This document shows, in pieces, positions 1 to 10,808 of a stretch of DNA of 10,808 nucleotides. The position numbers and the translations under genes are program-made. How positions within the stretch are numbered: position 1 is the first letter of the stretch; each line of letters starts with the position of its first letter. The stretch is from UHGV virus genome UHGV-0129264; one strand, written 5' to 3'. This DNA is from a virus. The notes below the pieces were generated by a model. The model was not told the DNA's origin. It did no database searches and was given only the letters and a program-made list of their open reading frames with translations.

Positions 1-38
1 AGCACCTCAAAAACACCATCATACACTAAATCAGTAAG

Positions 39-230
39 TTGGCAGCATCACCCAAGGCCGATGTTGTGGAACCTGGTTCGAAATATGCAAGTGCGCGCTA
101 CTCCAGGGGGAATGGGGCATTACCAAAAGACTGCCGAATAATCTTCTTCCATGGCAAACCGCGACCGCGTGAAGTGTCAGAGGATTGGCTTCCTCTCATT
201 AGCGCGTTTTTTGAGCAAGAATCAGGATAA
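39..230 (+). CDS. Hypothetical 63-aa ORF with TTG start; may instead be a frameshifted 3' remnant of a gene entering from the left edge
   Basis: ORF track; in-frame stop at 27-29 bounds it upstream; no internal ATG; weak RBS. A different frame is open from the window edge to a TAA at 139-141. Confidence 0.25.
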   Translation: MAASPKADVVEPGSKYASARYSRGNGALPKDCRIIFFHGKPRPREVSEDWLPLISAFFEQESG

Positions 231-4182: not shown

Positions 4183-4316
4183 GTAAGCCAGTGCATAATT
4201 CCATTTTTTACTGACCTTAAAAGCAAAATCAAAACGATGATGAGGATAATAGCCAGAATCTGGCTAATAATAGGCGCATCTAAAAATGCACTCAGGAACT
4301 GAAAAAAAGCGTTCAT
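4179..4316 (-). CDS. 45-aa hydrophobic single-helix peptide (MNAFFQFLSAFLDAPIISQILAIILIIVLILLLRSVKNGIMHWLT), small membrane protein
   Basis: Manual minus-strand translation; ATG at 4316-4314 preceded by AAGGAA (complement of 4324-4329) at 7-8 nt; stop embedded in palindromic terminator; not in the ORF track (<60 aa). Confidence 0.55.
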   Translation of the reverse strand: MNAFFQFLSAFLDAPIISQILAIILIIVLILLLRSVKNGIMHWLT

Positions 4317-5178
4317 TCAGGTGGTTCCTTGTCAAATGTAAAGGTGCACTTGCTCACGTTGACGTAGAAACCCAACCCCTATATAGTTGGATTCGGTGAA
4401 TGAAAGTCGTTAACGTGAGCTTACGGCACATGTTTTCGGAAAAACATCAGGGAACGGCTAATTCCTTGATGCGGGTGGGGTCTGTAATGCAGACCCTATC
4501 TATTAACGTCATGATTGCATCTCAAATTTTCTCCTTATCTTCAATTAATCTACATTCATTTCATCTGTTAGCCACCACAATATGTAGAAAATGGCCCTCT
4601 TGCAAGTGCATAACTTTGTGGATAACTCAGGAAGGAAAAAGTGGCTTTCGCGCACCTTCGGTCAGACAAGGTGTCCGGGAAAGTCAACGCAAAGAAAAAA
4701 ATTGTTAAAAATAACGTTTGTTGGAATTGTATATTTTTATCCCCTTCAATGGTTAGCATTCTATTAACATCTTTTTTTAGAGACAGAAAAACATATCGTA
4801 ACAACATATATACAGTATTAAGAGGCGAGTATTATCCTGCGGTGGGAATTCTGGGCGCTGTTAGATTCGACTTTCTCAGCGGGATTACATCGTCAACTTG
4901 CGACGTTGCCGTATGACTTTCGTGTAATAGGTGACAATGATGCGGCTAGTGAGTTACTTGTGAAGTTTTTCGGAAAAGGTTTTGTGGCCTCGGATCTTGA
5001 TGAGCTACAGCAACATGAAGTGTCTAATTTGATTTTTAGCCATAGCCAATAAGCCTCCCTCCTCCATCAAGGCCACAATTTGTGACCTTAAACAATTTGT
5101 TTTCTGCTTTTTCTTATTTGAGGAAATAACGTTGTTGACAGCTAATAGGCTCGTTGTTGTTATACATACCTGTATAGA

Positions 5179-6747: not shown

Positions 6748-6756
6748 GAGGTGTTT

Positions 6757-6978
6757 ATGCAATCCATTAACTTCCGTACCGCGCGCGGCAACCTTTCTGA
6801 AGTGCTCAACAATGTTGAAGCCGGGGAAGAGGTTGAAATCACCCGCAGAGGCCGTGAGCCAGCAGTAATTGTCAGCAAGGCTACTTTCGAAGCCTACAAA
6901 AAAGCGGCGCTGGATGCTGAATTTGCATCCCTGTTTGACACCCTGGACTCCACCAACAAGGAACTGGTTAACCGATAA
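6757..6978 (+). CDS. phd: Phd antitoxin (prevent-host-death), 73 aa
   Basis: Sequence [41 protein letters not shown]... matches P1 Phd as I recall it; ATG at 6757 (track start 6751 is an upstream GTG); stop overlaps the doc start (TAATG). Confidence 0.95.
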
Positions 6979-7358
6979 TGAGGCATATATCACCGGAAGA
7001 ACTTATTGCGCTTCATGATGCGAATATAAACCGCTACGGCGGCCTGCCGGGAATGTCAGATCCGGGTAGGGCAGAGGCCATTATCGGGAGAGTTCAGGCC
7101 AGAGTCGCCTACGAAGAGATCACCGACCTTTTCGAAGTCTCCGCCACCTACCTGGTGGCTACAGCGAGAGGGCATATATTCAATGATGCCAATAAGCGTA
7201 CCGCGCTAAACAGTGCGCTGTTATTTCTACGCCGTAACGGGGTGCAGGTATTTGATTCACCTGAACTGGCAGACCTTACCGTAGGGGCTGCGACCGGAGA
7301 GATATCTGTATCTTCTGTCGCCGACACGTTACGTAGATTGTATGGTTCCGCGGAGTAG
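6978..7358 (+). CDS. doc: Doc toxin (death-on-curing, Fic-fold kinase), 126 aa
   Basis: [17 protein letters not shown]...[11 protein letters not shown]... matches P1 Doc as I recall it; translationally coupled to phd. Confidence 0.95.
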
Positions 7359-8701: not shown

Positions 8702-9154
8702 ATGTTACTTAACTGGCAGGGACGCCACTTCATGGAAATAAATCACTCACGAATAACATCGTACGAGATTGCGGATTACATGATCCGCACTAAATCTCTT
8801 CTATCAGCGAAAGAACTCGCAGCAATTCTTGAAAAGGAATACCCGCATCTGGATGTCGATAAGCGCGATGTTTATCTGCGCTTAAAGGCTATCGCTGTGT
8901 CTAAGTATTCGTCTGTTTTGATTGATGACAGTACACGCCCACGTAGATTTCAGATCCACTCTCTGAATCCTGAATTCTTTCGCCGTAGCCGCGCTCCGCG
9001 CCGGTTTGATGAAAAACTCCAGAACGAACTCTATATGACGCAGGACGAAAAGGAACGCCGGGAGCACCAGCCTTGGGTAATGGCGCGTCAACTTTTCAAT
9101 AAGGTGGCCCGTCAGCACCGTCATTACGGTAATGCCACATCCGCACGTATCTGA
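8702..9154 (+). CDS. lpa: Lpa, late promoter activator (gene 10 product)
   Basis: Position between pdcB and pacA with a C1-controlled promoter upstream; AGGTGA SD before ATG 8702; identity rests on synteny (sequence not recalled). Confidence 0.7.
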   Translation: MLLNWQGRHFMEINHSRITSYEIADYMIRTKSLLSAKELAAILEKEYPHLDVDKRDVYLRLKAIAVSKYSSVLIDDSTRPRRFQIHSLNPEFFRRSRAPRRFDEKLQNELYMTQDEKERREHQPWVMARQLFNKVARQHRHYGNATSARI

Positions 9155-9239
9155 TTGATTGCTTGCTCGTTCCGGGCCTTTTGACATGTGACTTTCGTTA
9201 CCCTCGCGTCAAAAAGAGTTTTTACGAAAGGAAGCATAA

Positions 9240-10025
9240 GTGACCTGGGACGATCACAAGAAGAATTTTGCTCGCCTGGCGCGAGATGGTGGTTACACCA
9301 TCGCACAGTATGCCGCCGAGTTTAATCTTAACCCTAATACCGCACGTCGTTATCTCCGTGCCTTCAAAGAAGACACCAGGACTGCGGACAGCCGCAAGCC
9401 AAATAAGCCAGTCAGGAAGCCACTAAAAAGCATGATCATTGATCACTCTAATGATCAACATGCAGGTGATCATATTGCGGCTGAAATAGCGGAAAAACAG
9501 AGAGTTAATGCCGTTATCAGTGCCGCAGTCGAGAATGCGAAGCGCCAAAATAAGCGCATAAATGATCGTTCAGATGATCATGACGTGATCACCCGCGCCC
9601 ACCGGACCTTACGTGATCGCCTGGAACGCGACACCCTGGATGATGATGGTGAACGCTTTGAATTCGAAGCTGGCGATTACCTGATAGATAACGTTGAAGC
9701 GCGGAAGGCCGCGCGCGCTATGTTGCGTCGGTCCGGGGCCGATGTTCTGGAAACCACTCTTCTTGAAAAGTCTCTTTCTCATCTCCTTATGCTGGAGAAC
9801 GCCAGGGATACGTGTATTCGCCTGGTGCAGGAAATGCGCGATCAGCAAAAAGACGATGATGAAGGTACTCCGCCTGAATACCGTATCGCGAGCATGCTAA
9901 ACAGCTGTTCCGCGCAGATAAGCAGCCTGATCAACACCATTTACAGCATCCGGAATAACTATCGAAAAGAAAGCCGGGAGGCGGAAAAGGGGTCCGCTTG
10001 GAAAACGGAAAATATCCTACGCTAA
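9240..10025 (+). pseudogene. pacA: pacA (pacase/terminase small subunit) truncated by transposon insertion: about 249 native codons then 12 codons read from the transposon IR before a stop
   Basis: GTG start 9240 with AGGAAG SD; N-terminus [10 protein letters not shown] matches P1 PacA as I recall; the reading frame runs into the 38-bp IR at 9989 and ends at TAA 10023-10025; native PacA is about 400 aa. Confidence 0.85.
9433..9591 (+). repeat. P1 pac site: four TGATCA hexamers (9433-9438, 9440-9445, 9452-9457, 9467-9472) and three TGATCR hexamers (9563-9568, 9575-9580, 9586-9591) flanking the cleavage region
   Basis: The 4+3 arrangement of Dam-site-containing hexamers inside the 5' part of pacA matches the described pac site architecture. 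Confidence 0.9.
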
Positions 10026-10026
10026 G
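9989..10026. repeat. 38-bp terminal inverted repeat of a Tn3-family transposon (GGGGTCCGCTTGGAAAACGGAAAATATCCTACGCTAAG), Tn21/Tn501-subgroup-like
   Basis: GGGG terminus, internal GAAAACGGAAAAT and terminal ACGCTAAG match Tn21-type IRs from memory; the tnpA stop lies inside the IR, as is typical. Confidence 0.85.
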
Positions 10027-10808
10027 CCTGTTTTTTGTACAGGCTGCTGTCTACTGAGCGTAACGAACGGTATTTCCCCTGTCCCAGCTTGAGGTTTGTT
10101 CGCCAGACGTAATCTCCGCTCAGGTTGATGTGTTCCCATCCCAGAGGGGACAGATGAGAAATCAGCTGGTCATTGATTAGGATCCCTTTTCGCTTCAGAG
10201 AATCTATGGCTCTTTCTATATATACCGTATTCCAGAGTGAGATCGCCGCAGTCAGCAAGGTGAGCCCACTTGCCCGATAGCTCTGGTATTCCAGTCCCCG
10301 ATCTCTGATTTCACCCAGCCGGTGCATAAAGACTGCGCGCGCAAGGGCATTCCGCGCCTCACCTTTATTCAGCCCTGCCTGTACGCGTCGACGCAGGGAA
10401 GGATCCCGGAACCAGTCCAGCATAAACAATGACCTTTCGATGCGACCAATTTCCCTTAGCGCTTTTGCCAGACCATTTTGTTTCGGATAGCTGGCCAGCT
10501 TTTTCATCATCAGTGATGCTGTTACCGTTCCCTGTTTTATAGAGTTCGCCAGACGTAGCACCTCACTCCAGTGGGTTTCAATGTCCTTTAGATTCAGGCT
10601 GGTTGTGGAAATAATTGACTGAAGCCCCGGATACAACTCGGATTTTCCATGAATAAACAATCTCTTGTCATGAAGATCCCGGATCCTTGGCGCAAAAGCG
10701 AATCCGAGCAGATGCATCAACGCGAAAACATGATCAGTGAAACCTGCGGTGTCGGTGTAATGCTCTGTAATCTCCAGCTCGCTTTCGTGATACAGCAAGC
10801 CGTCAAGT
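10022..10808 (-). CDS. tnpA: Tn3-family transposase TnpA, C-terminal ~260 aa (partial; N-terminus beyond window end)
   Basis: C-terminal region ([21 protein letters not shown]...[13 protein letters not shown]) is typical of Tn3-family DDE transposases; ORF is open to the window edge. Confidence 0.9.

Follow-up and report, generated by a model that had tools for sequence, protein, structure and literature searches.

The right-hand end of UHGV-0129264, a viral genome sequence of 10,808 nt analysed here over its whole length (the window), raises the question of what became of pacA, the gene for terminase (pacase) subunit A of P1-like phages: its reading frame runs into the terminal repeat of a Tn3-family transposon and stops there, with a transposase gene approaching from the other side. 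The window derives from a P1/P7-like phage-plasmid, and the locus very probably records the simple insertion of a 7,059-bp Tn3-family transposon into pacA of an Enterobacteriaceae element of this type, which would most likely be packaging-defective alone and maintained as a plasmid. This instance was not found described in the collections and literature searched; the kind of event is well known.

Within the window, the 5′ portion of pacA occupies positions 9240–9989 on the + strand and comprises codons 1–250 of 397, as delimited by comparison with P1, with the Escherichia coli plasmid p20170403CC-1 (NZ_AP025206), and with the PHROG terminase profile phrog_1711, of which only positions 1–262 of 417 are matched by PacA residues 1–250. 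It differs from nucleotides 1–750 of P1 pacA at 6 nt (246 of 249 residues identical) and is 100% identical to the intact pacA of p20170403CC-1. A megablast search of 9100–10808 against phages, PLSDB plasmids, and complete E. coli genomes returned hundreds of P1-like matches at 95–100% identity, and the homology to P1, P7, and ~580 P1-like plasmids ends at window position 9989 (query position 890) in every record. This is the first base of a 38-bp terminal inverted repeat (9989–10026, + strand; GGGGTCCGCTTGGAAAACGGAAAATATCCTACGCTAAG) that matches once in the window, with 0 matches expected by chance, and into which the initial annotation had rightly seen the pacA frame run. Specifically, in the alignment with the intact relative the P1-type sequence at the site reads ...GGCGGAAAAG/CACGC, versus ...GGCGGAAAA/GGGGTCCGC in the window; the insertion point lies between pacA nucleotides 749 and 750, ~400 bp downstream of the packaging site pac, and codon 250 (AAG) is completed by coincidence through the initial G of the repeat. 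Beyond it, the pacA frame continues for 11 sense codons of repeat sequence, not the 12 initially counted, the twelfth being the stop. The resulting fusion open reading frame (ORF; 9240–10025, + strand) has a GTG start and a TAA stop at 10023–10025, and encodes 261 amino acids (aa), namely PacA(1–250) and 11 repeat-encoded residues. The transposase gene tnpA does converge from the right: its 3′ end (10022–10808, − strand) contributes the C-terminal 261 codons (10022–10807), with a TAG stop at 10022–10024 inside the repeat, and the gene runs off the window. The two stop codons, TAA on the + strand and TAG on the − strand, overlap within the repeat motif CGCTAAG.

Judged by ORF length alone, PacA might naturally be ~250–260 aa in this lineage, in which case nothing would be truncated. 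We regard this as practically excluded: the 100%-identical relative carries a 397-aa PacA, as do most listed members of its 90% cluster, the profile match ends well within the profile, and residues 249–397 are located right after the transposon (see below). The proposal of a truncation relative to P1 PacA is thereby upheld, with the break at codon 250 of 397. More broadly, pacA is contiguous in 569 of the 578 PLSDB plasmids that have the gene, and it belongs to the invariant-length core genes of 77 P1-like phage-plasmids (PMC9603915). Some 100%-identical plasmids list a "hypothetical protein" at this place and were considered as further cases of truncation; they were rejected, the gene there being 1,194 nt. 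A search of the PDB found no PacA relative, so no domain boundary was placed at residue 250.

Whether the junction is genuine, and what lies beyond it, could be addressed with longer contigs. An exact look-up of the 261-aa fusion protein identified at least 27 contigs (35 index blocks) of ENA/Logan metagenome assemblies, with no NCBI accession listed in the look-up record; many of these contigs come from PRJNA217052, cited in papers as the Fiji community gut/oral metagenome cohort. Two of them, including a 27.4-kb contig that carries the whole window (L004), are 100% identical to all 10,808 window bases (L004 and L008), and eight others are 100% identical wherever they overlap. The left junction is identical in at least ten contigs from differing assemblers and samples (k119, k127, NODE, and Logan names). 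Elsewhere, exact-pattern scans gave no match to the left junction in IMG/VR viral contigs, GTDB species-representative genomes, or JGI metagenome contigs, and none to the predicted right junction in the latter two; no record in the phage, PLSDB plasmid, and complete E. coli genome collections spans the junction.

Rightward extension on the 100%-identical contigs, as the initial annotation had proposed, revealed the other inverted repeat 7 kb away, GAAAA at both ends, pacA residues 249–397, pacB, and c1. The left copy of the target-site duplication, GAAAA, lies at window positions 9984–9988 and is repeated after the right-hand repeat in L004, L005, L006, and L009, all four of which contain the right junction with a perfect duplication and the continuation of pacA. 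In L004, positions 17112–17116 are GAAAA, followed by GCACGCTTTG..., that is, pacA resumes, and downstream of the transposon the reading frames for PacA residues 249–397, PacB (494 aa), and C1 (283 aa) are uninterrupted. The corresponding empty site is provided by p20170403CC-1, which matches L004 165–10053 at 99.95% and L004 17112–20089 at 100%; the two flanking alignments overlap by exactly GAAAAG, which corresponds to the 5-bp duplication and one coincidental G, and GAAAA is single-copy in this empty site. These observations bear on a technical explanation, in which the junction is a metagenome chimera of a P1-like contig and an unrelated transposon joined at the repeat. In favor of this, both ends fall where assemblies typically break, the end of the window within a repeated mobile element and the start of its parent contig within an IS1. 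Against it, the left junction recurs in contigs from different assemblers and samples, the four contigs also cross the right junction with an exact 5-bp duplication and seamless pacA continuation, and the flanks equal the empty site base for base. With four assemblies showing a perfect duplication, a chimera is ruled out for practical purposes.

The complete element fits the Tn3 family, with ~38-bp repeats beginning GGGG, a ~1000-aa DDE transposase, a 5-bp duplication, and mobility as a unit. In L004, the tnpA-side repeat occupies 10053–10090 (equal to window 9989–10026) and the partner repeat on the cargo side 17074–17111 (36/38 match to the tnpA-side repeat). Between them, tnpA (10086–13070, − strand) encodes a 994-aa protein that scores 1186.5 bits against the Tn3 family transposase model NF033527 (cut-off 500) and contains DDE_Tnp_Tn3 (PF01526) and DUF4158 (PF13700); the tnpA codons in the window are 100% identical to the C-terminus of this complete TnpA. 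Both a partner repeat and a tnpA are thus in place, the lack of which would have spoken against a transposon. Divergent from tnpA and separated from it by 160 bp, tnpR (13231–13809, + strand) encodes a 192-aa serine resolvase (PF00239 and PF02796). The initial annotation had expected cargo outside the window, for example resistance genes; four cargo genes are indeed present, none of them a classical antibiotic-resistance gene. They encode a MarA-family activator (13940–14320, − strand; 126 aa; NF008564, 251.9 bits, cut-off 202) and, by profile match, a DUF1993 protein (14481–14981, − strand), a nitroreductase-family protein (15155–15832, − strand), and a LysR regulator (16141–17010, + strand). 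The MarA-family protein falls just under the cut-off of a second NCBIfam MarA model (248 versus 250) and is named MarA in NCBI records; its gene has no adjacent marR, shares its strand with the nitroreductase and DUF1993 genes located upstream, and is divergent from lysR. The set of four genes also occurs under consecutive accessions in several Enterobacterales genomes.

By analogy with the family, the insertion would have begun with TnpA binding the 38-bp repeats, and replicative transposition from a donor replicon would have yielded a cointegrate and the 5-bp duplication; the serine resolvase TnpR would then have resolved this cointegrate at res, presumed to lie in the gap that separates the two divergent genes tnpA and tnpR.

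What would such an insertion leave of the packaging function? The pac site itself lies at 9433–9591, as located by a hexamer scan and by coordinates transferred from the P1 annotation. In P1, pac is a ~160-bp site inside pacA, with 4 + 3 TGATCA/G hexamers arranged around an IHF site and the cut positions (PMC10028697). The window contains four TGATCA hexamers (HEX4) at 9433, 9440, 9452, and 9467, and three TGATCA/G hexamers (HEX3) at 9563, 9575, and 9586; the P1 IHF site maps to 9495–9507 and the cleavage points to ~9515–9524, both upstream of the insertion. As judged from its sequence, pac is intact, in agreement with the initial annotation, which had placed an intact site upstream of the insertion. 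Three positions of the region (9473, 9500, and 9516) deviate from P1, one within the annotated IHF site and one beside the annotated cut positions. We attribute these differences to lineage variation, not decay, because the lpa–pacA stretch that includes pac is 100% identical to that of relatives with an uninterrupted pacA.

The proteins that act on pac are another matter. In P1, CRISPRi knock-down of pacA or pacB reduces the efficiency of plating to < 1.2e-7 and amber mutants are on record, so that both genes are essential (PMC10695390). Transcription of the pacAB operon starts from the Lpa-dependent late promoter LPpac, which we place at 9186–9204 (+ strand) by transfer from the P1 GenBank annotation NC_005856, the source of all P1 feature positions used here (L014 676–694; ungapped 99% alignment, in which the window coordinate equals that of L014 plus 8510). 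Directly upstream of pacA lies the gene for the late-promoter activator itself, lpa (8702–9154, + strand), a 150-aa ORF that matches the PHROG Lpa-like transcriptional activator with E 7.6e-85 and is annotated lpa in P1 and P7 matches; the lpa–pacA stretch is 99.1–99.4% identical to P1 and P7 records. After the insertion, PacA(1–250) with its 11 additional residues is still encoded behind LPpac, the 3′ part (residues 249–397) is promoter-distal, and pacB is displaced 7 kb from LPpac. The full-length PacA of a functional P1 pacase is thus not present as one protein, with the split at residue 250 and pacB 7 kb away from its late promoter. Because P1 cannot grow without either pacA or pacB, the element is most likely unable to cut pac or fill heads alone, and hence to package itself. 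Plasmid maintenance functions, in contrast, are intact, comprising c1 and the phd-doc addiction module (6751–7358, + strand; ORFs 6751–6978 and 6978–7358), which is recognized by Pfam PhdYeFM_antitox and Fic/Doc on identical contigs and whose counterparts in p20170403CC-1 are annotated as Phd/YefM antitoxin and death-on-curing toxin. The element would therefore be expected to persist as a low-copy plasmid via C1 repression and phd-doc, and the initial description of it as packaging-defective and maintained as a plasmid appears to be a reasonable inference, given the essential role of pacA and pacB in P1 and the intact phd/doc and c1 here.

Several observations weigh against a complete loss of self-packaging. 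Between them, the two PacA fragments account for all 397 residues, with an overlap of two (EK). The 3′ part has an in-frame ATG within the cargo-side repeat, at L004 17085, which opens a 158-aa ORF (17085–17561). The lysR gene reads outward toward the 3′ part of pacA, and nothing resembling a terminator was detected in a simple scan of the + strand from lysR to pacB. In addition, the P1 annotation includes a predicted internal promoter, PpacB, from which pacB may still be expressed. It is thus conceivable that PacA retains some activity as a split protein, and in its strongest form the argument would be that the insertion is real but the element self-packaging, with PacA(1–250) and a C-terminal fragment, made from the repeat ATG on lysR read-through or a transposon-end transcript, reassembling with PacB. 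The occurrence of the element at 100% identity in many gut metagenomes would suit this proposal. Recovery from many samples shows persistence and not the mode of spread. On balance we consider the proposal quite improbable. Every copy of the transposon has this ATG as a native feature of its end, hence it was not selected at pacA; the sole Shine–Dalgarno-like bases (AGG) touch the ATG with zero spacing; a simple scan of L004 16000–17700 found no promoter-like site; and the extreme rarity of pacA interruptions among complete P1-like plasmids suggests that interruption is not neutral for phage function. The further idea that the repeat ATG evolved at this locus to restart PacA was rejected: the cargo-side repeat shows the same 2/38 differences from the tnpA-side repeat, one of them the source of the ATG, in every copy examined, and this two-base difference is present in all other copies of the transposon.

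A packaging-defective element need not be immobile, however. The intact pac in cis could still allow packaging by a P1-like helper resident in the same cell, and P1 phagemids carrying pac are indeed packaged in trans (PMC10028697). The element might accordingly spread horizontally as a helper-dependent passenger, its pac cut and packaged by PacAB of a co-resident or superinfecting P1-like phage. We consider this possible but rather unlikely: pac is identical to that of intact relatives and the same element turns up in several assemblies, many Fiji cohort samples among them, but C1 immunity and incompatibility would restrict coexistence with a closely related helper, and clonal spread of one host strain accounts for the same data. 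A more far-reaching and decidedly speculative proposal, to which we give little credence, holds that the element has become a helper-dependent P1 derivative packaged by other P1-like pacases, or that late PacA(1–250), with the N-terminal DNA-binding part, serves as a pac-binding decoy against superinfecting P1-like phages. If true, the insertion would be adaptive rather than tolerated, which would help to explain the identical element in many human gut metagenomes. The loss of autonomous packaging with plasmid maintenance remains the reading we prefer. As such, the locus would provide a natural, base-level instance of the transitions from phage-plasmid to plasmid that have been discussed for P1-like elements, with one-step loss of the phage life style and plasmid functions kept; the current understanding of phage-plasmids and Tn3-family transposons is unchanged by it.

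Comparison with described P1-like elements places the case in context. P7 with Tn2, RCS47, SJ46, pTZ20_1P with Tn1722, and JL22 likewise combine a P1-type backbone with transposon or insertion sequence (IS) accessory genes while keeping plasmid maintenance. However, the insertions in such described cargo cases are in variable regions or intergenic, with a full-length pacA (PMC9603915), whereas here the transposon lies inside the essential pacA. Engineered P1 pac and pacA mutants, together with amber pacA and pacB mutants, resemble the present element in that packaging of the P1 genome is blocked or reduced and the prophage plasmid is still maintained (PMC10028697, PMC10695390). Those mutants are laboratory-made; here a natural insertion, from human gut metagenomes, keeps pac and abolishes the integrity of PacA.

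The transposon itself is, by sequence comparison, a cargo variant of the Tn2501/Tn2502/Tn2503 lineage, and not Tn2503 itself. Tn2503, an arsenic-resistance class II transposon from pCD of Yersinia pestis Java 9, carries the 38-bp tnpA-side repeat of the present element at both of its ends without a mismatch (38/38), its TnpA is 95% identical over 994 aa, and the tnpA–tnpR module shows ~91.5% nucleotide identity. The layout is also shared, with a repeat, tnpA with an inward stop inside the repeat, the presumed res region, a divergent tnpR, cargo, and the second repeat, as are 5-bp duplications (PMC3316555). In contrast, Tn2502 and Tn2503 carry arsHRBC cargo, and Tn2503 is 6,769 bp long versus 7,059 bp for the element described here, in which the cargo-side repeat deviates at 2/38. 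The initial label "Tn21-like" fits the repeat only. Repeats of the Tn21/TnAs3 type also begin with GGGG and end with ACGCTAAG, transposons of this type have the tnpA stop in the repeat as well, and a base-by-base comparison with the Tn21-type repeat of R702 found 30/38 positions shared. The TnpA of the Tn21-type transposon (TnAs3 family) of R702 is only 56% identical, versus 95% for Tn2503, its recombinase and tnpA genes are co-directional whereas here they are divergent, and the present transposon has no mer operon or integron. Membership of the Tn21 subgroup is therefore not supported by the sequences compared. R702 also holds one transposon end that is identical to the window repeat.

A search of the literature for a Tn3-family transposon that carries marA and has a name returned nothing specific, and no published name was found for this variant; the full transposon with its cargo is also absent from the phage, PLSDB plasmid, and complete E. 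coli genome collections searched. Draft genomes assigned to E. coli, Klebsiella quasipneumoniae, and Enterobacter quasihormaechei do contain exact matches to TnpA and the cargo proteins. Moreover, the same 7,059-bp element, 99.97–100% identical, is found at four or more other sites, flanked by the duplications GAGAT, TTAAT, AAGAA, and TGGCA; IncFII replication genes accompany it on some of these contigs, and the contigs reach up to 580 kb. Identical copies with their own duplications are direct evidence of recent mobility, and the transposon is currently active. In enterobacteria, MarA serves as a global activator, switching on AcrAB efflux. By placing a MarA-family regulator and a nitroreductase on a P1-type replicon in human gut samples, the transposon is relevant to resistance surveillance, which is usually aimed at classical genes.

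Relatives of the transposon show further variation. Plasmid p12379_2 of Enterobacter kobei carries an 8,226-bp element (L003 9001–17226) with perfect 38-bp repeats, both ends of which are identical to the window repeat; its first 3.75 kb are ~94% identical in the tnpA–tnpR module, its cargo is a different, redox-related one and comprises an SDR, an aldo/keto reductase, an NADH:flavin oxidoreductase, and an AraC regulator, and its flanks, TTCTT and TATCA, represent no target duplication. In one further copy (L022, ~5981–12997), the outer 21 bp of both repeats are gone and IS110-family transposase genes abut both ends; several PLSDB plasmid matches to the related transposon likewise start at repeat position 22. 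Elements of the IS4321/IS5075 type insert into Tn21-type repeats, a habit that this copy and the position-22 starts resemble.

Finally, the remainder of the window conforms to the P1 plan. From left to right it contains an IS1 end, a pmgS-like head gene, a polynucleotide-kinase-like gene, small genes, humD, phd, doc, pdcB, lpa, and the pacA ORF, of which pmgS-like, humD, phd, doc, pdcB, lpa, and pacA are arranged as in P1; the backbone is thus of the Punavirus type, with pacB and c1 found beyond the transposon in the longer contigs. Scans of the whole window for tRNAs and Rfam families gave no match, and a stretch of ~1 kb (~4200–5178) contains no called gene on identical contigs and none listed for the relative in the PLSDB table. 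Window positions 1–53 belong to an IS1, of which they form the terminus (53 bp); the parent contig begins within the same element (L004 1–117). In p20170403CC-1, an IS1A lies at the equivalent place, adjoining IS5 and a RepB-family replication gene. The presence of IS1 in this intact relative marks it as an older shared feature, and the IS1 is a likely cause of the assembly break.

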